Source: a virus
Taxonomy: Duplodnaviria > Heunggongvirae > Uroviricota > Caudoviricetes
Length of the DNA stretch: 34,205 bases
IMG/VR virus record: IMGVR_UViG_2579778753_000004
Strand: one strand, 5' to 3'
The translations under genes and the position numbers were made by a program. Positions 4,328 through 34,205 of the stretch are shown here, in pieces. The first letter of the stretch is position 1, and each line of letters opens with the position of its first letter. Under the pieces are notes generated by a model. It saw nothing but the letters and a program-made list of their open reading frames with translations. It was not told the DNA's origin and did not search any database.

Positions 4328-4840
4328 TCAGTGGGAATGGTGATTAGAGTTCGGGCCGTCAGAGAGCATGCTGCCTGTCGAGTGGGCATTGCCGTTGATT
4401 TCAAGGTTGCCGTTCACCGTGGTGGTGTCAGCGGTCAAATCAATGGTTTTCCCCTTCAGGCTGATACCCACTGCAACCTCGATCACCACATGCTCGATAC
4501 CACCTTTGACTGTCAGCGTATGGGTCGCACGGTTATAGCTGAACTCTGCGCCATCCGCGTATTTCGTGCCCCGGACATGTTTGTCGCTGAACGGCGGTTT
4601 ATCGACTTCTGAGTACACCGCGCCCAGAATGACACCATCCTCGCCGTTGGCATCGAGCAGCACTTCAACCTGCTCCCCCACGTCAGGGAGCCAGTAATCC
4701 TTGTTATCCTGGGTATTGCGCTGCAGCACGTTAAGCCAGTTAGTGCGCAGGTTATCGCATTCCGGCAGACGAACGCGGGCCTGAACCTTGTCGGCATCGA
4801 CGGCGCTGACCGTACCGACCTGACGAGTGACGCCTGTCAT
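4328..4840 (-). CDS. Baseplate spike/assembly protein V-like
   Basis: 170 aa, gpV-like, followed by W and J homologues. Confidence 0.7.
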   Translation of the reverse strand: MTGVTRQVGTVSAVDADKVQARVRLPECDNLRTNWLNVLQRNTQDNKDYWLPDVGEQVEVLLDANGEDGVILGAVYSEVDKPPFSDKHVRGTKYADGAEFSYNRATHTLTVKGGIEHVVIEVAVGISLKGKTIDLTADTTTVNGNLEINGNAHSTGSMLSDGPNSNHHSH

Positions 4841-21658: not shown

Positions 21659-22308
21659 TTCTGTAATCCTTCCCGTTCGTCCAGCAGCCCGTTTATCTGG
21701 CTGCGCCAGATGCGGCACTGCTTCGCGTTGTCGATGATGTTGGCGAGGACATCACGCTGGGAGACGCCTGAGTTGCGTAGCCAGGCGTCAGCGGCTTCAG
21801 GTTGCCCGGACGCTGCGCCAGTGCCGGTGCCAGCGGCGGCAGTTGCGTCTGAATGACCGGTGTCGACGGATGCGTTGTCATATCCGAGCGCGGCGTTGTA
21901 CTGGCGCACGAAACCGCGAGTAAACACGCACTCAATGGGATGGCTCTTACCTTTTTCATCAATCCAGCGCTGTGTGACATCGTTAATTTGCCCCTGTAGT
22001 TGTTTGTTCTGGCTCTCCAGTTGAGCAATCTGCTCAAGGTAACTGGCTTCAGCCTGCTGCCCGGCGGCTACCTGTTCCTGATACCGTTTCGCCCAAGCCC
22101 GCAACGCAGCGTTCTCAAGCGTTGCCTGCTCCGTTTTGTACGTGTCGAATGCTGACTGCAACTCACTGACCGCCTTATCGCCGTCGCGCGTGGCGTTTTC
22201 ATGCCCGCTTTTGTAGCCCAGGTAATAAAGCCCAATCAGAAAAGCATTTATGACCACCGCCAGCAGCAGACTGCGCCACGGCAGATTTTTTAGCAGGTTA
22301 GTCCACAC
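21655..22308 (-). CDS. Rz-like inner-membrane spanin
   Basis: GTG start with GGAGG RBS overlapping the endolysin stop; N-terminal transmembrane segment WRSLLLAVVINAFLIGLYYLGY, then coiled coil. Confidence 0.6.
   Translation of the reverse strand: MWTNLLKNLPWRSLLLAVVINAFLIGLYYLGYKSGHENATRDGDKAVSELQSAFDTYKTEQATLENAALRAWAKRYQEQVAAGQQAEASYLEQIAQLESQNKQLQGQINDVTQRWIDEKGKSHPIECVFTRGFVRQYNAALGYDNASVDTGHSDATAAAGTGTGAASGQPEAADAWLRNSGVSQRDVLANIIDNAKQCRIWRSQINGLLDEREGLQK
21693..21959 (-). CDS. Rz1-like outer-membrane lipoprotein spanin, embedded in the +1 frame of Rz
   Basis: MKKVRAIPLSACLLAVSC... signal and lipobox-like Cys, then a Pro-rich mature region; wholly inside the Rz-like gene. Confidence 0.55.
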   Translation of the reverse strand: MKKVRAIPLSACLLAVSCASTTPRSDMTTHPSTPVIQTQLPPLAPALAQRPGNLKPLTPGYATQASPSVMSSPTSSTTRSSAASGAAR

Positions 22309-23035
22309 AGCTGCCGCCTCCCCAGGTGAGATAACGCGGGGCCAGTTCGTGCAGGATGCGCTGCGGATAATGACGGTTCTCCCGCCAGTTGGCAGTGCTG
22401 CGTCCGGCATTCACCGTGGCGACATGACCAAACCAGCGGGTGCTGTCCAGCCCCTGCTGCGAGGCCAGCCGTTTGTCCCGCTGTACCCAGCCCAGACCAC
22501 CGTTATAGCCTGACAGCGTCATGGCCATACGCTCGCAGTCATTGACGGCGCTGACGCGTTGCCACAGCCAGCGGTCATAGCTGACCAGCGCCCGGATGGC
22601 CCAAGACGGATTAAACGGTTCACGGCTGTTAAGCCCCGGCATCAGCTGACTTATCCAGTCAGCGGTGGTGGGCATAAACTGCGCCAGTCCCTGAGCGCCA
22701 ACCGGCGAGACCGCATCAGGTCGCCAGCCGCTTTCCTGATGCAGCTGCGCGGCGAAGTCGGCCACCGGCGCAGACATTCCCCATTCAAGCCGGGCATTAC
22801 GGATCACATCGTCGCGATACTGCAGCGCGGTCTGCGGTGGCTGGGCAGCGCGGGCCTGACTGAAGAAGCCGCCACACCAGAGCAGCCAGGCTACCGTTAC
22901 TGAACCAAAGAGCTGCCACCAGAAACTGTGCTTACCCGTTCGGGCCTGCCCGTGGCGGGCCAGTTCGATGCCCAGCCCCAGCAGTACCAGCACGGCCCAG
23001 ACAACCTGAGGCCAGTACATATAGAGGGTCATCAT
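22298..23035 (-). CDS. Lytic transglycosylase endolysin (SLT domain) with hydrophobic N-terminus (possible SAR-type)
   Basis: SLT catalytic motif ...QESGWRPDAVSPVGAQGLAQFMP...; about 60 N-terminal residues with two hydrophobic stretches. Confidence 0.8.
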   Translation of the reverse strand: MMTLYMYWPQVVWAVLVLLGLGIELARHGQARTGKHSFWWQLFGSVTVAWLLWCGGFFSQARAAQPPQTALQYRDDVIRNARLEWGMSAPVADFAAQLHQESGWRPDAVSPVGAQGLAQFMPTTADWISQLMPGLNSREPFNPSWAIRALVSYDRWLWQRVSAVNDCERMAMTLSGYNGGLGWVQRDKRLASQQGLDSTRWFGHVATVNAGRSTANWRENRHYPQRILHELAPRYLTWGGGSCVD

Positions 23036-23385
23036 TAAAGCCCCATCGCTACGGCCAGACAGACTGCAGCAACAATCAGCGCACGGCGGATTAGCGCAGC
23101 AGAAAAGACCAGGTGAAGGCCAGTCTGGACAGGGAAGCGACCATCAGCCATCAGCCTGTCATCATGCTTCAGGTACTGACCGGGACGGGCTTTGGGGAAA
23201 AGCGAACGGTCAAGCCAGTAGCCCAATACTGCCGCCAGCGTGATGAGTGATAGCTTGTAGACAACCACCGGCAGCTGCTGGGGCGATACCAGACCGATGG
23301 TGCCGAGCAGCAGCACAGCGGTCAGCAGCCAGCCGCTGAGACGTGGCTTTTTAACAGGGGGAATGAATTTTTTCAGGTTTTTCAT
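23035..23385 (-). CDS. Putative holin (three predicted transmembrane segments)
   Basis: Start at ATG 23385 (MKNLKKF...) with RBS AAGGAGA; first gene of the late operon, just upstream of the endolysin. Confidence 0.5.
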   Translation of the reverse strand: MKNLKKFIPPVKKPRLSGWLLTAVLLLGTIGLVSPQQLPVVVYKLSLITLAAVLGYWLDRSLFPKARPGQYLKHDDRLMADGRFPVQTGLHLVFSAALIRRALIVAAVCLAVAMGL

Positions 23386-23497
23386 GAGCGTCTCCTTGTG
23401 TAGTGGAGACAGCATCACAAATGGTCGGGGAAAGGGATTTTAAACAGCGTTAATAGTGAGGATGCAGACGTGAACCGCATGATGGCTTTGAAAGAAC

Positions 23498-23529: not shown

Positions 23530-23632
23530 ATCAACCCACAGGTATGCACTGTGAGCCGACCAGGGTTCAGTCAGTCTCGCGAGACCAGACTAGCCTGCCA
23601 TATTTTCATTGATTGCAAAAGGCTTACGGATA

Positions 23633-24403
23633 ATGAAAGAACAATCTTTACCCATCGTCCCATGGATTGGCGGTAAACGTCGTCTGGCGAAGCATATTTT
23701 ACCATTGTTTCCGGCCCATACCTGCTATGTGGAGCCGTTCTGCGGGGCAGCTGCGCTCTATTTCCTAAAGACTCCCAGCAAGACCGAAGTCATTAACGAT
23801 ATCAACGGGGAACTGGTGAACCTCTATCGGGTGGTCAAGCATCATCTGGAAGAATTTATTCGCCAGTTCAAATGGGCGCTGGTCAGCCGTCAGATTTACA
23901 AATGGTTGCAGGATACGCCGGAAGAAACGCTCACCGACATTCAGCGGGCGGCCCGGTTCTACTACCTGCAGAAACAGGCATTTGGCGGCAAGGTCGCCGA
24001 TCACACATTCGGTACCTCTACAACCAGTGCGCCGCGCTTCAATTTGCTGCGTATTGAGGAAGAACTGTCGATGGCACACCTGCGCCTGTCGAGAACGCTG
24101 ATAGAGCATCTGGACTGGCACCAGTGCATAGAGCGATATGATCGCCCGCATACGCTGTTCTACTGTGACCCACCGTACTGGGGAACGGAAGGCTATGGTG
24201 TGGAGTTCGGGCTGGAAAACTATGATCACATGGCAGATTTAGCGCGAAGGATCAAAGGGAAGATGATTATATCAGTGAACGATATCCCGGAAATGCGGCA
24301 GGTATTCAACGGTCTGAACATGCAGTCGGTTGATATCAGCTACAACCTTAAGGTAACAGGCAAACCCAGCCCGAAGAAAGAGCTGGTAATTTGTAATTTT
24401 TGA
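23633..24403 (+). CDS. DNA N6-adenine methyltransferase, Dam-like (orphan)
   Basis: N-terminal PWIGGKRRL and catalytic DPPY (YCDPPYWGTEGYG) motifs; start taken at ATG 23633 (the ORF track starts at a TTG at 23609). Confidence 0.8.
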   Translation: MKEQSLPIVPWIGGKRRLAKHILPLFPAHTCYVEPFCGAAALYFLKTPSKTEVINDINGELVNLYRVVKHHLEEFIRQFKWALVSRQIYKWLQDTPEETLTDIQRAARFYYLQKQAFGGKVADHTFGTSTTSAPRFNLLRIEEELSMAHLRLSRTLIEHLDWHQCIERYDRPHTLFYCDPPYWGTEGYGVEFGLENYDHMADLARRIKGKMIISVNDIPEMRQVFNGLNMQSVDISYNLKVTGKPSPKKELVICNF

Positions 24404-25518: not shown

Positions 25519-25743
25519 ATGAACAAACAACAAGTTCGGGCACGGCTGGTTGAAAGAGGCAGTAGCTTGCGCCAGTTCGCGCTTAACGCGGGCTATGAGC
25601 CACGAACAGTCACCCAGGCTGTCAGCCGCTGGGCAGGCAAAAGCGAACTTCCACGCGGTCGTTTGACTTATCGGATTTTGCGAGACCTTTCGGTCGCAAT
25701 AGGCAAAGAAGTTACCCCCGGCATCCTCAAGGAGGCGTCATGA
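25519..25743 (+). CDS. ner: Ner-like DNA-binding protein
   Basis: 75 aa ...LRQFALNAGYEPRTVTQAVSRWAG...; first gene of the early operon, RBS AGGAA. Confidence 0.7.
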   Translation: MNKQQVRARLVERGSSLRQFALNAGYEPRTVTQAVSRWAGKSELPRGRLTYRILRDLSVAIGKEVTPGILKEAS

Positions 25744-26045
25744 GTAAACCAAATACATCAAGCTCAGGTACCCGTATTTTGCGTGTCCTTAAGGCTTTAC
25801 GCGGTCACGCTCTGAACGGTGTTTCTAACGGCGAGCTGGCGTCAGCTCTGGGCGAGTCCCCGGCGAATATCAATCGGGCGCTCAATACCCTTATCGAAGA
25901 AGGACTGGCCCTGAAACTGGATAACGGGCGTTTTGCCCCAGGAGTCCAGCTCTTACAAATCGCCATGGCGCACAGTACCGAAATGGCGCGGGCGCAGGAT
26001 CGTATCAATGAAATTAACCAGCGTGTTATGGCTGGTAGTCGCTAA
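25740..26045 (+). CDS. Small winged-helix DNA-binding protein
   Basis: 101 aa, HTH-like ILRVLKALRGHALNGVSNGELASALGESPANINRALNTLIEEGLA; ATGA overlap with ner; RBS AAGGAGG. Confidence 0.55.
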   Translation: MSKPNTSSSGTRILRVLKALRGHALNGVSNGELASALGESPANINRALNTLIEEGLALKLDNGRFAPGVQLLQIAMAHSTEMARAQDRINEINQRVMAGSR

Positions 26046-26054
26046 GGAGTTGAA

Positions 26055-26963
26055 ATGGGACGCACAAAATCACAACCAGTTGAACTAGTGGAAGATGCAC
26101 CGCTGACCGATGGTCTCAGTGTCAGTCTTAATGCTATGTCCGAACATCGCCTCGAAATCATGCAGCAGTTTGGTGATGGCCTGCCGTATGAACGTGATCG
26201 TATTGTCCATGAAACACGTTTTTATATGGCTCAGAGTGCTGAAGCCATGCTGGAGGCGGGTAAACGACTGGTAATTCTCAAAGAAAATGAACCACATGGT
26301 GACTTCATCGACATCGTTGAGTCTCAGTTGTCCCTATCCAAACGTACCGCGCAGGTGATGATGCAAGCATCCCTCAAATATTTGTCTCCCAAGCTTGAAC
26401 CAAAAGCGCAAGCGCTTGCGCTTTTGGGTAAAACAAAGCTGTTTGAGTTGATGACGGAAGATGACGAAGACCTCGTCGAATTAGCCGATGGCGGCACGAT
26501 TGCTGGTATGAGCCTCGATGATATTGATCGCATGACAAGCCGCGAACTGAAAGCGGCCCTACGCGAAGCGCGTGAAACCAACGCAGCACAACAGCGCGTG
26601 CTTGCCGACAAAAACGAAAAAATCGACTCGCTCTCCACAAAACTGGAGAAGAAATCCCGTATCCAACCGCCCAAGCCTGACGAAGAGGTGAAGAAGCTGC
26701 GTGCGGAAGTTACAGCGTTAGCGGTTGAGGCGGAATCTGCCATCGCCGTTCGACTGTCCAGCGCCTTTGAGACCCTGTGCGCATACTGTGCTGAAAATAT
26801 GATTGATACCCCCAGAGACTTTATGGCCGGTCTGGTCTGCCAGTTGGAAAGCACCGCGCGTAGCCTGCGCTCCACATTTGACCTGCCGGACGAGCCGACA
26901 GGCAACGCCGCCCCTTCATGGCTGACTGACCCGACGCCAGAGATTAACGGGCAGGAGGCATAA
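26055..26963 (+). CDS. Conserved early protein of unknown function (DUF3102-like, from memory)
   Basis: 302 aa, coiled-coil middle region, RBS AAGGAG; lies between Ner and transposase. Confidence 0.5.
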   Translation: MGRTKSQPVELVEDAPLTDGLSVSLNAMSEHRLEIMQQFGDGLPYERDRIVHETRFYMAQSAEAMLEAGKRLVILKENEPHGDFIDIVESQLSLSKRTAQVMMQASLKYLSPKLEPKAQALALLGKTKLFELMTEDDEDLVELADGGTIAGMSLDDIDRMTSRELKAALREARETNAAQQRVLADKNEKIDSLSTKLEKKSRIQPPKPDEEVKKLRAEVTALAVEAESAIAVRLSSAFETLCAYCAENMIDTPRDFMAGLVCQLESTARSLRSTFDLPDEPTGNAAPSWLTDPTPEINGQEA

Positions 26964-26966
26964 CCC

Positions 26967-28736
26967 ATGAGTGCCGCCCTGACTGAACGACTGGTTTATG
27001 TTGCCCGCGCGGCACGTGACGCGGGGCATGGTAAGCGTGGTGCGATATATGATGCCGCCTGCGCCGAACTGGGCATTTCCCGCGCCACCCTGCTGCGCAA
27101 GCTGAAGGAGGTATCAGTGACTGACAAACGTAAAAAACGCGCCGATGCCGGGCGCAGTGCCCTGAGCCGCGACGAAGCCGCGCTGATATCTGCCACGCTG
27201 CGCGAGGCCACCCGTAAGAACGGTAAGCGCCTGTATTCCATCGCGGATGCGGTGGAGACCCTGCGGTCAAACGGCTTTATCACTGCTGGCAGAACGGACG
27301 AGGCCACAGGCGAGTTTTTCCCGCTGTCCGAGGACACCATCAGCCGCGCCCTGCGGAACTATGGTCTGCACCCGGAACAGCTTGACGCACCGGCCCCGTC
27401 GTCCGAGATGGCCAGCCTGCATCCCAATCACGTCTGGGAGATTGATGCCTCACTTTGTACGCTTTACTACCTGAGCAACGGCCATAAAGGGTTGCAGGTG
27501 ATGGACAGCTCGAAGTTCTACAAGAACAAGCCTGCCAACATCGCCCGCATCGCCAGTGACCGCGTGTGGAGTTACGAGATTACCGACCATACCAGCGGCT
27601 GGATTTACGTTGAGTACGTGATGGGTGCGGAATCTGGTGAGAACCTCTGTTCTGTGCTTATCAACGCCATGCAGGAGCGCGGCGGCGCGGACGTGCTGCA
27701 CGGCGTGCCGAAAATACTCTACCTTGATCCCGGTTCGGCGAACACCGCTGGCATGACGAAAAACATGTGCCGCTCGCTGGGCATCAATCTGATAGCGCAC
27801 AAGCCGCATAACGCCCGCGCCACCGGGCAGGTGGAAAAGGCCCGTGACATTATCGAACGTAAACTGGAGCCGGGTCTCAAATTCCAGCCGGTTCATAGCC
27901 TGGACGAACTGAACGCGCTGGCGGTGAAATGGCGCAGCCACTTTAACGCCACGGCGGTCCACAGCCGCCACGGTAAAACCCGCACGGATATCTGGCTGAA
28001 GATTACTGCTGACCAGCTGAAAAAAGCGCCATCCGTTGAGGTTTGCCGCGAACTGGCGGTGGCCGCACCGGAACTCCGTAAGGTCACACCAAAACTGCGC
28101 GTCTCGTTCCGGGGCAATGAGTTTGACGTTTCGACGGTACCGGGCGTACTGGTCGGCGAAAAACTGATGATTACCCGTAACCCGTGGCGCAGCGATGTGG
28201 CGCAGGTGGTGCTGACCGGTGAGGACGGTCACGAGACGTTCTTCCTGGTCGAGGAGGTCAGAAAGAACGAGTTCGGCTTTGCCGAAAGCGCGGCGGTATT
28301 TGGCGAAAACTACAAAGCCCTGCCGGAGACCCCGGCGCAGACGGCGGCAAAAGAAATCGAAGAGCTGGTTACGGGCACCGATAACGCCACCGATGCAGCT
28401 GCTGCACGCAAGGCGAAGGCGCTGCCGTTCGGCGGGCGACTTGACCCGTACAAACATATCGACGACACCACGCTTCCTGCCTATATGCCGAAGCGCGGTC
28501 AGGCTTCAGACGTGCGCGGGCCGCGTATTGAGCAGCGTCCGCTGACCCATGTGGAGGCGGCGAAAGCCCTGCGCGAGAAGTTTGGCGCTAACGGCCATAT
28601 CTGGACGCCGGAACATTACCGCCAGTTAACGGCGCAGTACCCGGATGGCGTACCTGAAGCCGCGCTGGATGAGGTGATGGTTACCCTGACCACTCCGGCC
28701 CGCAACAGCGTTATCAGCATCGTTAACGGTAACTGA
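26967..28736 (+). CDS. DDE transposase (MuA-like)
   Basis: 589 aa; candidate catalytic Asp at ...VWEIDASL... and ...LYLDPGSANT...; followed by the ATPase gene; RBS AGGAGG. Confidence 0.85.
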   Translation: MSAALTERLVYVARAARDAGHGKRGAIYDAACAELGISRATLLRKLKEVSVTDKRKKRADAGRSALSRDEAALISATLREATRKNGKRLYSIADAVETLRSNGFITAGRTDEATGEFFPLSEDTISRALRNYGLHPEQLDAPAPSSEMASLHPNHVWEIDASLCTLYYLSNGHKGLQVMDSSKFYKNKPANIARIASDRVWSYEITDHTSGWIYVEYVMGAESGENLCSVLINAMQERGGADVLHGVPKILYLDPGSANTAGMTKNMCRSLGINLIAHKPHNARATGQVEKARDIIERKLEPGLKFQPVHSLDELNALAVKWRSHFNATAVHSRHGKTRTDIWLKITADQLKKAPSVEVCRELAVAAPELRKVTPKLRVSFRGNEFDVSTVPGVLVGEKLMITRNPWRSDVAQVVLTGEDGHETFFLVEEVRKNEFGFAESAAVFGENYKALPETPAQTAAKEIEELVTGTDNATDAAAARKAKALPFGGRLDPYKHIDDTTLPAYMPKRGQASDVRGPRIEQRPLTHVEAAKALREKFGANGHIWTPEHYRQLTAQYPDGVPEAALDEVMVTLTTPARNSVISIVNGN

Positions 28737-28746
28737 GGAGGAAGGC

Positions 28747-29913
28747 ATGCTGGTACTGAAGCAACAACTGAAAGAGGCCCGCATCCCGCAGGCGGTGGTG
28801 GCAAGAGCCGTCGCCGTTTCCGAGGCCACGCTGGCCCAGATTGTGAACCATAACGAGTGGCCACGCACCAGCCCCGAAGAGGTACGCCAGCGTCTGGCGT
28901 TGTATCTGGAAAGTAAGGGGATTGATACAGCGAAAAGTTTTGATGCTGCACAGGGCGCTGTCACGCCCCGTACAGCGGGTACTACCGATAAAACCAACCT
29001 CAGTGAGGAAGAGAACATGTTACTCAAAAAGCAGGTGTTATTTCCAGCAACCAAAAAAGCGTTTGGCCTTTTCCGTGATCCGTTCGCCGATGAAGCCATG
29101 CAGGGCGCGGACGATGTGTTCACCACGCCGGATATCCGCTACGTGCGTGAGGCGCTGTTCCAGACCGCCCGCCATGGTGGCTTTCTGGCGGTTATCGGCG
29201 AGTCCGGTGCGGGTAAATCCACGCTGCGCCGCGACCTGATTGAACGCGTCAACCGCGAGAACGCGCCGGTGATTGTAATTGAGCCATACATCATCGCCAT
29301 GGAAGACAACGACGTGAAGGGCAAAACCCTGAAGGCGGCAGCTATCGCCGAGGCCATCATCAGCACCATCGCGCCGCTGGAGAGTATCAAACGCAGCCAG
29401 GACGCCCGCTTCCGCCAGTTGCACCGCGTCCTGAAGGACAGCAGTCAGGCGGGTTTCAGCCACGTTCTGGTGATTGAGGAGGCCCACAGCCTTCCCATTC
29501 CGACGCTGAAGCACCTTAAACGCTTCTTCGAACTGGAGTCCGGCTTCAAAAAACTGCTGTCCATCGTGCTGATTGGCCAGCCTGAACTGGCGGACAAACT
29601 GTCCGAACGCAACATGGAAGTCCGTGAGGTCGTCCAGCGCTGCGAGGTGGTTGAATTGCTGCCGCTGGACAACAGCCTCGAAGAGTTTCTGACGTTCAAA
29701 CTGCAACGTGCCGGTAAGCAGCTGGCCGACATCATGGACGCCAGCGCAGTGGAAGCCATCCGCGCCCGTCTGAGCAATCTGGGTGGTAGCCGTAAAAGCA
29801 TGGTCAGCCTGCTGTATCCGCTGGCCGTCAGTAACCTGGTGATAGCCGCCATGAATCTGGCTGCTGAAATCGGGGTTCCGCAGGTCAACGCCGACGTCGT
29901 CAAAGGAGTTTAA
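28747..29913 (+). CDS. Transposition helper AAA+ ATPase (MuB-like)
   Basis: 388 aa, Walker A GESGAGKST, Walker B-like HVLVIEEAH; immediately downstream of the transposase. Confidence 0.8.
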   Translation: MLVLKQQLKEARIPQAVVARAVAVSEATLAQIVNHNEWPRTSPEEVRQRLALYLESKGIDTAKSFDAAQGAVTPRTAGTTDKTNLSEEENMLLKKQVLFPATKKAFGLFRDPFADEAMQGADDVFTTPDIRYVREALFQTARHGGFLAVIGESGAGKSTLRRDLIERVNRENAPVIVIEPYIIAMEDNDVKGKTLKAAAIAEAIISTIAPLESIKRSQDARFRQLHRVLKDSSQAGFSHVLVIEEAHSLPIPTLKHLKRFFELESGFKKLLSIVLIGQPELADKLSERNMEVREVVQRCEVVELLPLDNSLEEFLTFKLQRAGKQLADIMDASAVEAIRARLSNLGGSRKSMVSLLYPLAVSNLVIAAMNLAAEIGVPQVNADVVKGV

Positions 29914-29915
29914 TC

Positions 29916-30185
29916 ATGAAATCCATCGCCGATATCAACCAGCAGATGAACAAGGTGCAGTCCGCCATTATGGCGCTCAACGCCATGAACACTACCGTGC
30001 AGAGCGTCATGATTGCTGGCAGTAAGCCGGTTATCCGTATCGCCCGCAACGGGCACTGTGCCCGCCTGCTGGAGCAGGGCAAAGCGAGTTATACCCATGT
30101 TGGCCATGACGGCTCAGGGCGCTTCCGTCAGGGCGTCTTTGAGTTGCATGGCTGCCGTATTACCTGGTCAGAGTCGTTACATTAA
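29916..30185 (+). CDS. Hypothetical early protein
   Basis: 89 aa, RBS AAAGGAG, tightly coupled to B. Confidence 0.5.
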   Translation: MKSIADINQQMNKVQSAIMALNAMNTTVQSVMIAGSKPVIRIARNGHCARLLEQGKASYTHVGHDGSGRFRQGVFELHGCRITWSESLH

Positions 30186-30202
30186 CCATAAGGTGAACAG
30201 AG

Positions 30203-30814
30203 ATGAGCGAAGTAAATAAAGAAAACTACATGAAAGACCGCAAGGGGCGTCTGGTGCCGGTTGACCAGGTGTCTGACTATGACCTTGCGATGGACTCTTT
30301 CGTTAAAGAACAGGTTGTCGCCGCGAAGGTTAAACGCGATGAACTCAGTGACTTCAAGCGTCGTGCCTTTGACGAGTGCTATGCCTGGCTTGACCTTGTG
30401 GCCGAGAAGTACGGCAGAACGCGTGGCGGTGCCAAAGGCAACGTGACCTTCAGCAGCTTCGACGGTGCTCAGCAGATCACCATCCGCGTGCAGGAAACCC
30501 TGACCTTCGGGCCAGAGCTGCAGATTGCCAAAGACCTGATAGACGAGTGCGTCACCGAGTGGTCGGAAGGCGCGAACGCCAACCTGCGGGCCATCATCAG
30601 CGATGCTTTTCAGGTGGACAAAGAGGGCCAGCTTAATACCGGACGTATTCTTTCCCTGCGCCGCGTCAAGATTCAGGACGAGCGCTGGAACCGGGCAATG
30701 GAGGCCATATCGGAATCACTGCAGGTGGCAATGTCCAAAACCTATATTAATTTCCGGGAGAAAGATAAACACGGGAAGCTAATTAATATTCCGTTAGATA
30801 TCGCTGCCATTTAA
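30203..30814 (+). CDS. Conserved Mu-like early protein (DUF3164-like, from memory)
   Basis: 203 aa, RBS AGGTGA. Confidence 0.5.
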   Translation: MSEVNKENYMKDRKGRLVPVDQVSDYDLAMDSFVKEQVVAAKVKRDELSDFKRRAFDECYAWLDLVAEKYGRTRGGAKGNVTFSSFDGAQQITIRVQETLTFGPELQIAKDLIDECVTEWSEGANANLRAIISDAFQVDKEGQLNTGRILSLRRVKIQDERWNRAMEAISESLQVAMSKTYINFREKDKHGKLINIPLDIAAI

Positions 30815-30892
30815 TTTTAATTCAATTTCTTTTTATTTCGGCGTCAGTGCCGTGGGCTTCTGCACGCCGAAAACAGCATTAAGGAATAAATC

Positions 30893-31081
30893 ATGTCCAT
30901 CAAATGTATCAACTGCCAGAAAGGTATCACCACCCTGAAGTTCAGCGACGCCAGCGTCATTTCCTCCGGTAAGTACCGCGTACCAGCCGTCCTCATCACG
31001 CTGGTATGCCCACACTGTAGCCAGCATTACTACACCGAAGTCCCGGCCATGGAATTCATCCCTTGTGAGGCAAAGAAATGA
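30893..31081 (+). CDS. Small zinc-ribbon protein
   Basis: 62 aa with C-x2-C ... C-x2-C (CINCQ ... CPHCSQ); RBS AAGGAA. Confidence 0.5.
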   Translation: MSIKCINCQKGITTLKFSDASVISSGKYRVPAVLITLVCPHCSQHYYTEVPAMEFIPCEAKK

Positions 31082-31179
31082 TTACTGCAAAAGAAGCCGA
31101 AAAACGGACCCGTGAAATTGTCGCGGAATATATCAGTGAATGTGGTTGTGAAAATCCCAACCATATCGGCAGGTATTAA
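31078..31179 (+). CDS. Micro-ORF (33 aa), translationally coupled
   Basis: ATGA overlap with the upstream stop; MITAKEAEKRTREIVAEYISECGCENPNHIGRY. Confidence 0.3.
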   Translation: MITAKEAEKRTREIVAEYISECGCENPNHIGRY

Positions 31180-31193
31180 TCAAATTAATCAGC

Positions 31194-31349
31194 ATGGCTT
31201 CACACGCCATCGTAGCAACAAATGGCCTAGATCAGGCTATTTACGTTCTTCACGCCACCAGTGACCACCTGAGAAAAATGCCGCCGCTGTACGAGCTGGA
31301 AATTACTGAGGACGGCCACGTGAAAGTTATCGGCGTATCACGCCATTGA
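31194..31349 (+). CDS. Micro-ORF (51 aa)
   Basis: ATG-initiated frame in a gene-dense operon; weak RBS. Confidence 0.3.
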   Translation: MASHAIVATNGLDQAIYVLHATSDHLRKMPPLYELEITEDGHVKVIGVSRH

Positions 31350-31364
31350 TTTGGGGAAGATAAG

Positions 31365-31661
31365 ATGAAAGGCATGAAATTATATAACCGTTCGACGATC
31401 TACAATCTGGCCCTCAAAACCTTCGGCCCAGAAGCTCAGGCTCTGAAGCTGATGGAAGAAGCTGCCGAACTGGCCGCTGCTGCTGCCCGCAACATGAACG
31501 GACTGGGCAATGAAGTTGATCTGGCAGGCGAACTGGCTGACGTTGAAATCATGATTGAACAGTTCCGCCTAAACGGGATGGGCCTGATGATTGATTTTCA
31601 TAAGCAGAAAAAGCTGGAACGCCTTGCCGAACGCCTGGGGGTGACTTATGCCGCAGAATAA
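31365..31661 (+). CDS. MazG-like nucleotide pyrophosphohydrolase-type small protein (tentative)
   Basis: 98 aa; acidic helix motifs LMEEAAELAAAAA and LAGELADVEIMIEQ; RBS GGGGAAG. Confidence 0.45.
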   Translation: MKGMKLYNRSTIYNLALKTFGPEAQALKLMEEAAELAAAAARNMNGLGNEVDLAGELADVEIMIEQFRLNGMGLMIDFHKQKKLERLAERLGVTYAAE

Positions 31662-32337
31662 TGAAAAGCTGCTGGAGAAGTTAAAAAAGCTACTTGCGCT
31701 GGCTAAATCCGATAACCCCCATGAAGCGGCACTGGCACTGCAACGCGCCCAGAAACTGATGCAGGCCTATAACATCACCCAGGCTGACCTCGCACTCAGT
31801 GATATTGATGAAAGCGTCAGTAACTACTGGGCTGCAGGTAGCGTTAATCCGCCGCGTTATATGCTGGGTCTGCTGGATATTATCCAGGTGGCATTTGGCG
31901 TTAAGTCTATTATTCACTCCGGCTTTAAACCCGGCGTTGGCTTTTACGGTAATAAAGACCGGGTTGAACTGGCCTCATATACATGGGAGGTACTGGCCAG
32001 ACAGTTAATCATGGCCCGTAAAAACTATATTCGACAGCAGAATAAAAGAATCAAAAACACGACCAAGACCAGCCGTGGTGACAAATTTGCCGAAGGGTGG
32101 GTTCTGGCCGTGCGTAGCGAGGTTCATTTATTTGCTATGTCCCGCGAAGAACGGGAGCTGGCAAACCTCTGGCTTGAACAAAAATACCCTGATTCAGGAA
32201 CAACCTCTGGCCGCAAAGCCGGTAAATCCCGTGACGCGGACATGTCCCGCCACATCGGTTACAGAGAGGGAGAAAACGTCCGTCTACATCAGCCTGTCAG
32301 CGGGCAGGAACAGCGGAAGCTGGGGAGTGGCTTATGA
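31648..32337 (+). CDS. DUF2786-like protein
   Basis: 229 aa; N-terminal KLLALAKSDNPHEAALALQRAQKLM as I recall for DUF2786; RBS GGGGGTGA. Confidence 0.5.
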   Translation: MPQNNEKLLEKLKKLLALAKSDNPHEAALALQRAQKLMQAYNITQADLALSDIDESVSNYWAAGSVNPPRYMLGLLDIIQVAFGVKSIIHSGFKPGVGFYGNKDRVELASYTWEVLARQLIMARKNYIRQQNKRIKNTTKTSRGDKFAEGWVLAVRSEVHLFAMSREERELANLWLEQKYPDSGTTSGRKAGKSRDADMSRHIGYREGENVRLHQPVSGQEQRKLGSGL

Positions 32338-32549
32338 TGGCTGAATCAATTGTATGTGCCTTGTTCTGGTATGGTCTCGTGGGGTGGTGTACTGCTGAAC
32401 TGCACCGCCGTTCAGGGTTTTACTCACGTTACAGCGGTACCGGACACTGGATCAGTTGGGCCGTTATGTTCCTGTGCTGGCCTGTCGCGCTTCCTTTATA
32501 TGTCGACTATATCGGTGGCGCAGGTAAAAGGAGTGGCAATGATGACTAA
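32334..32549 (+). CDS. Small membrane protein (two predicted transmembrane helices)
   Basis: 71 aa; ATGA overlap with the upstream gene; RBS GGGGAG. Confidence 0.5.
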   Translation: MMAESIVCALFWYGLVGWCTAELHRRSGFYSRYSGTGHWISWAVMFLCWPVALPLYVDYIGGAGKRSGNDD

Positions 32550-32967
32550 GCAGCGTCTTATTCAACTCATTCATATTGCCCGCAGCGACCTCCAGATGGA
32601 TGAGGACACCTACCGCCAGATGCTACAGGGGCTGACCGGCAAAGCCTCAACCAAAGGGATGGATACCCCACAACTAAACCGCGTGCTGGAATCAATGAAA
32701 AAGAAAGGCTTTCGCATTAAGCCTGCCGGGAAAGCCAAGTCCGGCTTACCGCTCGACAGCCATCCGCAGTCAAAGAAAATCCGTGCGCTATGGCTTGAAA
32801 TGGCTGCCGCAGGCATCGTCCGTGACAGTTCAGAGCAGGCGCTGGCGCTGTGGGTTAAACGGGAAACCGGCATCAGCGCGTTACGCTGGCTCAGCAATGA
32901 GCAGGCAAGTAGCGTGATTGAGAAACTGAAGAAGTGGCAGCGCAGAGCTGCGGGAGTGAAGCAATGA
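32539..32967 (+). CDS. gemA: GemA-like protein (Mu gp16 family)
   Basis: Start at ATGATG 32539 with RBS AAAGGAG; ...LIQLIHIARSDLQMDEDTYRQML... aligns with Mu GemA as I recall it. Confidence 0.65.
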   Translation: MMTKQRLIQLIHIARSDLQMDEDTYRQMLQGLTGKASTKGMDTPQLNRVLESMKKKGFRIKPAGKAKSGLPLDSHPQSKKIRALWLEMAAAGIVRDSSEQALALWVKRETGISALRWLSNEQASSVIEKLKKWQRRAAGVKQ

Positions 32968-33353
32968 GCGACCTGAATCAGTTTCGTAGTAAAGGGCCGG
33001 AACTGTTGGTGGAACTGGCACAGCATACCTCTGAGACTGTCCGCGAGATTATTGATATCGAACCCGCAGTTGCCGACCAGATTGGTCAGGCCGTCGCGAA
33101 CCGCATGATGCAGGTCTGGGGTGGGCAAAACGTCTATTTTCCGATGGGCATGGTCTGGAAGGTCAGCCAGCGCGACCGGGAAATTTTCCTGGAGTTTGAC
33201 GGGCGCAACCATCACGAACTGGCCCGCAAATTTGGTGTTTCACTACAGTGGGTTTACAGCGTGGTGAAGCGGGTCAGAAAAGAAGAACTGGATCGGATGC
33301 AGGGCAAACTGTTTGATGGCGAACCTGATGCCGATACAGGGAAAAAGGAGTAA
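32964..33353 (+). CDS. mor: Mor/C-family transcriptional activator
   Basis: ...VWGGQNVYFPMG...FDGRNHHELARKFGVSLQWVYSVVKR... aligns with Mu Mor (GGQ.VYIP ... FNGRN..EL...YGV....VY) from memory; ATGA overlap with gemA. Confidence 0.75.
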   Translation: MSDLNQFRSKGPELLVELAQHTSETVREIIDIEPAVADQIGQAVANRMMQVWGGQNVYFPMGMVWKVSQRDREIFLEFDGRNHHELARKFGVSLQWVYSVVKRVRKEELDRMQGKLFDGEPDADTGKKE

Positions 33354-33382
33354 TATCTGCAATCAGGCTGGTGCGAGTTCTG

Positions 33383-33434
<52 letters not shown>

Positions 33435-33443
33435 ATCCAGTCT

Positions 33444-33514
33444 CTTCCCATGTTGACCCAGTACTTCCCATAATTATCTCACTTATCCCCTGTCATTTAT
33501 CTCAAGTCTAATCA
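33444..33514. repeat. Prophage right terminus with subterminal direct repeats (putative transposase-binding sites)
   Basis: CTTCCCAT at 33444 and 33464 (20-bp period); TTATCTC at 33475 and 33498 (23-bp period); element ends ...AATCA at 33514. Confidence 0.55.
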
Positions 33515-34205
33515 GCTCACGGCCCTGATAGATAACGCCTTTTGAATCGCAAACCACGATGTTATGTTTTTGCAGACCCAGCGCTACCAGCAGGTTCATA
33601 CAGGCGATTGCTGCGGCACCCGCGCCGGAAACCACCATCCGCACGTCGGAGATGTTTTTCTCCACCACGCGCAAGCCGTTGAGGATGGCGGCAGTGCTGA
33701 TGATTGCCGTGCCGTGCTGATCGTCGTGGAATACCGGAATATTCATCCGCTCGCGCAGTTTCTGTTCAATATAGAAACATTCTGGCGCTTTAATGTCTTC
33801 GAGGTTGATTCCGCCGAAGGTCGGTTCGAGCGCAGCGACAACTTCAATAAATTTGTCCGGGTCGAGTTCATCAACTTCAATGTCAAATACATCAATCCCG
33901 GCGAATTTCTTAAACAGAACGCCCTTGCCTTCCATCACCGGTTTGCCAGCCAGCGCGCCAATGTTGCCTAACCCCAGCACCGCCGTACCGTTAGAGATCA
34001 CCGCCACCAGGTTACCGCGCGCGGTATATTTGTAGGCTTTTAACGGGTCTTTTTCGATTTCAAGACAAGGTGCGGCAACGCCTGGTGAGTAGGCCAGCGC
34101 CAGATCGCGCTGCGTTGCCAGAGGCTTGGTTGGAGAAACCTGGATTTTCCCTGGAACTGGAAATTCATGGAAATCAAGTGCACTTTGTTTTAACTGGTCA
34201 TCCAT
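33483..34205 (-). pseudogene. maeB: maeB 5' fragment (NADP-dependent malic enzyme) interrupted by the prophage
   Basis: The translation matches the N-terminal ~229 residues of E. coli MaeB as I recall them ([53 protein letters not shown]...GVIYQGRE), then diverges into [10 protein letters not shown]-stop read from phage DNA. Host-derived DNA is 33515-34205. Confidence 0.8.

Follow-up and report, generated by a model that had tools for sequence, protein, structure and literature searches.

The 98-residue protein encoded upstream of a DUF2786 gene in this Mu-like prophage is probably a stand-alone, single-domain nucleoside triphosphate (NTP) pyrophosphohydrolase of the MazG/HisE superfamily, expressed from the early operon and independent of its downstream neighbour. 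We treat the fold class, the conserved acidic residues, the purifying selection and the operon position as the observed parts of this reading. The substrate is not readable from the sequence, and the biological role set out below is one that we infer. Viewed more broadly, the MazG-like gene is an ordinary accessory early gene of a large phage family that already has a name. What is mildly new is limited to the reusable coupling junction at its 3′ end and the cassette variability of the slot in which it lies.

The gene pair lies among the early genes of a Mu-like prophage

The window (the whole stretch of 34,205 nucleotides that was analysed) represents a transposable, Mu-like E. coli prophage. 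A 3.5-kb segment that includes the gene pair is 100% identical in the chromosomes of E. coli CFS3292 and HH107; used as a query, it matched at least in part 640 of 5,426 complete E. coli genomes, of which only 23 matched at least 80%. The early operon was delimited from domain and PHROG matches and from the PGAP annotation of the identical prophage. It begins with a Ner-like wHTH protein, DUF3102, transposase A (rve), the AAA+ protein B, PHROG 2041 and DUF3164, and continues with a 62-residue zinc-ribbon protein, a 51-residue protein, the MazG-like protein, the DUF2786 protein, a 71-residue protein, GemA and Mor. The features of the operon and of the region around the gene pair are as follows:

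25740..33353, plus strand: early operon
30893-31081, plus strand: 62-residue CxxC...CxxC zinc-ribbon protein, PHROG 3401
31194-31349, plus strand: 51-residue protein, PHROG 3691
31353..31359, plus strand: Shine-Dalgarno-like GGGGAAG, 5 nt before the MazG-like ATG (read from the sequence)
31365..31661, plus strand: MazG-like gene, 98 residues, ATG start (from the open reading frame list), PHROG 2245, MazG-superfamily NTP pyrophosphohydrolase-like
31648..32337, plus strand: DUF2786 + DUF7168 gene, 229 residues, ATG start, PHROG 421 (domains from Pfam)
32334..32549, plus strand: 71-residue hydrophobic protein, PHROG 6436, overlapping the DUF2786 gene by 4 nt (ATGA)

The 51-residue gene is confined to some of the relatives, which makes the slot ahead of the MazG-like gene variable too. 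A CI-type repressor gene is divergent from the early operon, and the lysis and structural genes (1-25526) are on the minus strand, for example those for a holin (23035-23418) and an SLT protein (22298-23035). This layout differs from that of phage Mu in having late genes on the minus strand against an early operon on the plus strand, with Mor at the extreme right end. Such a divergent arrangement probably resembles that of BcepMu-like prophages (the annotation of phage KP12 cites S. Typhi STY1594). A D12-class N6-adenine DNA methyltransferase gene (23609-24403, plus strand; Pfam E = 1.2e-27) also stands between these lysis genes and the region of the repressor. The prophage ends just past Mor: the remainder of the window (33354-34205) holds a truncated maeB on the minus strand (33483-34205), whose frame is broken after approximately 232 residues, where it passes into the phage sequence at a junction near 33516. 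The corresponding end of the prophage in CFS3292 is bordered by a truncated gadC, and these differing flanks are consistent with random, Mu-type transpositional insertion. A search of the whole window against Rfam gave no match.

The 98-residue protein belongs to a MazG-superfamily phage family

Both members of the gene pair are genuine genes and not chance open reading frames. The 98-residue gene is under purifying selection, with dN/dS values of 0.03-0.23 against nine relatives at 67-97% amino acid identity. Its product is a secure member, by sequence profile, of PHROG 2245 ('nucleoside triphosphate pyrophosphohydrolase'), which matches residues 4-96 with 109.3 bits and covers profile positions 116-210 of 218; three further MazG-like PHROGs match weakly. 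The Pfam families score less well. PRA-PH (PF01503) gives E = 1.3e-3 and 19.6 bits, below its curated cut-off of 21.3, and MazG (PF03819) gives E = 0.09 and 13.5 bits, below a cut-off of 22, so that by Pfam's own threshold the protein does not reach membership of the MazG family. NCBIfam offers only a weak, sub-threshold HisI/HisE match. When 46 distant family members were searched singly, Pfam MazG was found at E < 0.01 for 18 of them (best 6.2e-5). Membership of the all-alpha MazG/HisE NTP pyrophosphohydrolase superfamily is well supported. The preliminary description had proposed a MazG-type protein from its acidic helices, and this holds at the level of the superfamily (PHROG 2245, invariant acidic motifs and dN/dS), although the Pfam MazG and PRA-PH scores fall just under their cut-offs. 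The profile search it had called for gave E = 4.7e-31 for PHROG 2245 and non-significant values of 0.018-1.3 for profile alignments to PDB entries.

The family is very large and extends to many types of phage without a DUF2786 gene. A word-indexed search recovered homologues in 85 clusters, nearly all from Enterobacterales, and an exhaustive profile search found 16,376 clusters (at 50% identity) at E ≤ 1e-3 and 7,810 at E ≤ 1e-10. Close homologues have already been named 'NTP pyrophosphatase (non-canonical NTP hydrolase)' or 'nucleoside triphosphate pyrophosphohydrolase family protein' by two sources; the RefSeq/PGAP label for the gene in the identical prophage is 'hypothetical protein'. In a tblastn search of 50,697 phage records the protein had four matches at E ≤ 1e-3. 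Some family members are longer. Those of 169-170 residues (P0025, P0026) carry a C-terminal extension of approximately 70 residues, and longer open reading frames ending at 4510 occur in four of the viral contigs (L027, L028, L032 and L072); two others of 168-171 residues (P0082, P0084) have a cysteine-rich, zinc-ribbon-like N-terminal extension of approximately 75 residues.

Several searches returned little. With the single 98-residue sequence, a PDB search gave nothing significant, its matches being limited to one designed repeat protein and one hydrolase of an unrelated kind; the PADLOC defence models gave no match, and neither did PF04447 at E ≤ 1 in the Pfam search. In the literature we found no enzymatic or genetic data for members of PHROG 2245, whose family name is an annotation, and only generic discussion of MazG in Mu-like prophages.

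Conserved acidic motifs and predicted structure

The acidic helix motifs that first drew attention to this protein are indeed present, as E31-E32-A-A-E35-L and E56-L-A-D59-V-E-I-M. A sequence of the form EExxE ... ExxD is the metal-binding signature of MazG-type enzymes, and the two predicted sites are placed as follows:

31455..31469, plus strand: EExxE, predicted first metal-binding motif (codons E31-E32-A-A-E35), from conservation and alignment to EEMGEL of 5ie9
31530..31541, plus strand: ExxD, predicted second metal-binding motif (codons E56-L-A-D59), from conservation and alignment to EELGD of 5ie9

Conservation was assessed in an alignment of 46 distant homologues at 32-51% identity. Within it G21, Q25, E31, E35, E56, D59, I62, Q66, K83 and L87 are invariant, and E32 (at least 90%) and R86 nearly so. 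Alignment of the family profile to Bacillus MazG (5ie9) pairs EEaaEL with EEMGEL and EelADv with EELGDV, which corroborates the assignment to the MazG-type signature. The same profile also lists iMazG, YpjD, PRA-PH and Sso MazG, all of these matches, including that to 5ie9, being non-significant at E = 0.018-1.3. Around the gene pair, a repeat search detected only short, chance-level repeats, of which one (31461-74 and 31524-37) reflects the like A-E-L-A coding of both predicted catalytic helices.

An AlphaFold2 model of the monomer (pLDDT 93.2, pTM 0.80) shows a compact all-alpha fold that can be superposed on solved MazG-type domains, with two long helices as against four discrete ones according to DSSP. 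The top Foldseek matches were 5ie9, iMazG, DCTPP1, HisN2 and 1vmg, at probabilities of 0.77-0.90; their E-values of 0.3-0.9 and TM scores of 0.45-0.56, with large rmsd, are non-significant when taken alone. Structure comparison had been named earlier as a means of recognising a MazG fold; MazG-type domains rank first in it, but with Foldseek E-values of 0.3-0.9 and TM scores of around 0.5.

Proposed function and alternatives

Our favoured explanation can be cast as a mechanism. The MazG-like gene would be expressed with the early operon, in which it lies between the transposition genes A and B and GemA/Mor, and its product would assemble, as do the solved small MazG proteins, as a dimer or tetramer. 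E31, E32 and E35 on one helix, together with E56 and D59 on the next, would bind Mg2+, while the conserved K83, R86 and R90 probably hold the phosphates. The predicted enzyme would then cleave a substrate resembling a nucleoside triphosphate at its alpha-beta phosphoanhydride bond, yielding NMP and pyrophosphate. Its likely role would be to reshape the host nucleotide pool in lytic growth by removal of an unwanted (d)NTP or an alarmone.

An alternative that is possible, if on the unlikely side, is a more specific version of the same explanation, differing in substrate and purpose only. By analogy with the phage protein Atd1, the enzyme might hydrolyse an immune or stress nucleotide, be it (p)ppGpp, (p)ppApp or a chain-terminating or signalling nucleotide, and so keep abortive infection from killing the cell before the phage is completed. 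Atd1 depletes (p)ppGpp, blunts TIR-based abortive infection and protects cells against the toxicity of TIR-STING and retron-TIR (bioRxiv 10.1101/2022.06.09.495361); it is the sole phage MazG-like protein with a demonstrated anti-defence effect that we found in the literature. The location of the gene within a variable accessory stretch of the early operon would suit such a purpose, as would the fact that the next slot in relatives can hold matches to PHROG 1518 ('host nuclease inhibitor') or a PF04447 pyrophosphohydrolase; moreover, Mu-like phages do not encode a DNA polymerase, which would make a pure replication-fidelity role less obvious. Against this, the Atd1-encoding phage PcCB7V is not among the tblastn matches at E ≤ 1e-3, so any kinship with Atd1 is probably at the superfamily level only, and PADLOC returned no match. 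Furthermore, a cyanophage MazG is reported to be unable to hydrolyse magic-spot nucleotides (PMC6850273), and the fold therefore does not predict the substrate.

It is very unlikely that the protein is instead a catalytically inert, MazG-shaped helical protein that binds a nucleotide or another protein and acts as a sponge or regulator. The sub-threshold Pfam scores, the moderate structural scores and the very small size of the protein would fit such a role, but the five acidic metal-site positions and K83/R86 are invariant or near-invariant in the 46 homologues even at 32-51% identity, as would be expected if the active site is functional. We also rejected the idea of a dNTP-depleting prophage defence effector, comparable to the rare PUA-MazG-HAD systems mentioned elsewhere (bioRxiv 10.64898/2026.01.15.699771), given that the gene follows those for the transposase within the lytic early operon and does not occupy a place expressed in lysogeny.

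The MazG-like and DUF2786 genes are neighbours and probably not a functional pair

The 229-residue neighbour had been described as DUF2786-like, an identity that is confirmed with a wide margin over the cut-offs. DUF2786 (PF10979) matches residues 7-45 (E = 2.1e-13, 50.4 bits against a cut-off of 23.9) and DUF7168 (PF23771) residues 47-190 (E = 1.5e-24, 86.7 bits against 25.5), both above the gathering score and in the expected N-to-C order. PADLOC gave only a chance-level Cmr5 match to this protein. The literature that we found contains single incidental mentions of DUF2786 in five papers and none of DUF7168, PF10979 or PF23771.

The two genes overlap by exactly 14 nt, as had been reported, and the boundary is built as follows:

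31637..31661, plus strand: coupling junction, comprising a Shine-Dalgarno sequence GGGGGTG (31637-43), the downstream ATG (31648-50) and the MazG-like stop codon TAA (31659-61) (read from the sequence)

The GGGGGTG is thus situated four bases ahead of the ATG of the 229-residue gene, inside the 3′ end of the MazG-like gene. A scan found no plus-strand promoter and no convincing terminator between the two genes; a plus-strand terminator-like site at 31332-31344 was disregarded (5-bp stem, poor T-tail). Translational coupling across the 14-nt junction is plausible from this arrangement. The overlap is not distinctive of the pair, however, because successive genes overlap throughout the stretch from the MazG-like gene to Mor: the 71-residue reading frame overlaps GemA, and GemA overlaps Mor.

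The same junction is moreover used by other genes. The sequence CTGGGGGTGACTTATGCC precedes unrelated downstream genes in four of the loci (L001, L011, L019 and L024), and the genes that start at its ATG encode, for example, a 128-residue protein (in KP12), proteins of 89 and 159 residues, and a 163-residue PF04447 dATP/dGTP pyrophosphohydrolase. Upstream of 152-155-residue proteins that match PHROG 1518 stands a close variant, CTGGGGGTGGAATATG. Since unrelated cassettes share the same junction, the overlap is a property of the genomic slot, and the 3′ end of the MazG-like gene, judged by these sequences, provides any cassette that follows with its start codon and the site at which ribosomes bind.

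Some of these cassettes deserve comment in their own right. The 152-155-residue proteins (L030:4284-4742, L033:4275-4736 and L067:4266-4733) match PHROG 26321 as well as PHROG 1518, and DUF2786 is absent from these loci. The 163-residue PF04447 protein (E = 4.7e-44) is encoded at the same 14-nt overlap in two contigs (L024:4284-4775 and L025:4284-4775), with DUF2786 following, so that two different nucleotide pyrophosphohydrolases are found there in tandem. An hhalign comparison of the MazG-like family with the L024 protein gave no significant sign of tandem paralogy (probability 0.2).

Distribution was followed from both genes. The MazG-anchored set comprised 81 loci (80 viral contigs with relatives, and phage KP12), to which the early proteins of the window were mapped. 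DUF2786 is adjacent to the MazG-like gene in 32 of them, separated from it in 34 by another gene or by a MazG-like C-terminal extension, and absent from 15, including loci (L001, L011, L014 and L019-22) whose MazG-like protein is 95-99% identical. Conversely, an HMM search found no MazG-like reading frame within 3 kb in 28 of 78 DUF2786-anchored loci. The gene is missing from four of these (L098, L100, L101 and L137) despite a DUF2786 protein of 87-94% identity, and from every one with a DUF2786 identity of 45% or less. Distant MazG-like members belong to non-Mu phages that have no DUF2786 gene; there they occupy early or replication modules, surrounded by small early genes or beside genes for DnaB, DNA polymerase A, VRR-NUC or terminase. 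One such non-Mu contig also encodes, in the same early region and approximately 5 kb upstream of its MazG-like member, an MBL-fold protein with a weak Pfam match to Apyc1 (anti-Pycsar) (L165:1-686).

A functional link between the two genes, as implied by the preliminary description, is not supported by these comparisons: adjacency in just 32 of 81 loci, 28 of 78 DUF2786 loci lacking the MazG-like gene, and a shared junction. It is accordingly highly improbable that the MazG-like and DUF2786 proteins, made in a fixed ratio through translational coupling, act together as a two-gene module in which, for example, one would target or regulate the other; the 14-nt overlap with its internal Shine-Dalgarno sequence and the presence of DUF2786 downstream, at whatever distance, in 66 of 81 loci (32 of them with the two genes side by side) speak for such a module, but it is largely refuted by distribution, given the 15 loci without DUF2786 (close relatives among them), the 28 DUF2786 loci without a MazG-like gene, the 34 with intervening sequence, the unequal numbers of phage records with homologues (205 for DUF2786 against four for the MazG-like protein), and the use of the same junction by unrelated genes in an operon that overlaps all the way from the MazG-like gene to Mor. 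On sequence grounds, then, a pair is not supported, and the DUF2786 + DUF7168 gene appears to be an independent neighbouring cassette that is linked to the MazG-like gene by operon position and not as part of a two-gene system.

Implications

In a phage early operon, overlap and adjacency alone are no indication of a functional pair. If the enzyme class that we favour is right, the gene for the 98-residue protein is a further example of how phages edit the nucleotide pool of their host, here in an abundant prophage family, and the RefSeq label of 'hypothetical protein' could be improved. Knowing the substrate of one member of this family of approximately 16,000 clusters would bear on thousands of phage genes, and would decide between house-cleaning and anti-immunity as the purpose of the small MazG proteins of phages. 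A broader proposal, which we consider rather doubtful, is that PHROG 2245 enzymes might be widespread phage counter-defence hydrolases directed against an alarmone or immune nucleotide, and that the stretch from DUF3164 to GemA in Mu-like prophages of this kind might be an anti-defence cassette site whose SD-ATG junction would let newly acquired genes be expressed by translational coupling.

Comparison with known systems

The closest family is PHROG 2245 itself, which has the same domain and motifs as the 98-residue protein, although the window protein lacks the first half of the profile. Solved small single-domain MazG proteins include Sulfolobus SSO3215 (1vmg), the integron-encoded iMazG (2q5z/2q73), Bacillus MazG (5ie9) and B. 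subtilis YpjD (2gta), with which the 98-residue family shares an identity of only 18-28% at E = 0.018-1.3. Compared with the phosphoribosyl-ATP pyrophosphohydrolase HisE (PRA-PH, PF01503), the protein scores below the cut-off of 21.3, and its place in a phage early operon without a histidine-biosynthesis context suggests that this likeness reflects a shared fold with a different function. PF04447 (dATP/dGTP pyrophosphohydrolase, formerly DUF550) is likewise phage-borne and adjoins the MazG-like gene in L024 and L025, but it is distinct from the 98-residue protein, with no Pfam match between them and an hhalign probability of 0.2 against the L024 protein.

Of the phage proteins, Atd1 from Pectobacterium phage PcCB7V resembles the 98-residue protein in consisting of one MazG catalytic domain and in having twin acidic motifs. 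Its phage is of another type, and none of the four tblastn matches at E ≤ 1e-3 among 50,697 phage records is PcCB7V. The cyanophage MazG is reported to be a pyrophosphohydrolase without magic-spot nucleotide hydrolysis (PMC6850273). The published phage MazG proteins differ among themselves, Atd1 depleting (p)ppGpp and the cyanophage enzyme leaving magic spot unhydrolysed.

For the downstream neighbour, the relevant comparison is with the DUF2786 + DUF7168 proteins of PHROG 421, of which it is a full-length member. Two distant homologues of 364 residues (P0162, P0164) carry in addition an N-terminal SprT-like domain (PF10263) that the window protein lacks, and this fusion is a possible hint that the DUF may act on DNA or DNA-protein complexes. 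Homologues of the DUF2786 protein are common in Pseudomonas transposable phages (JBD25, LPB1 and H72) and are also found in phages of Ralstonia, Xanthomonas and Stenotrophomonas.
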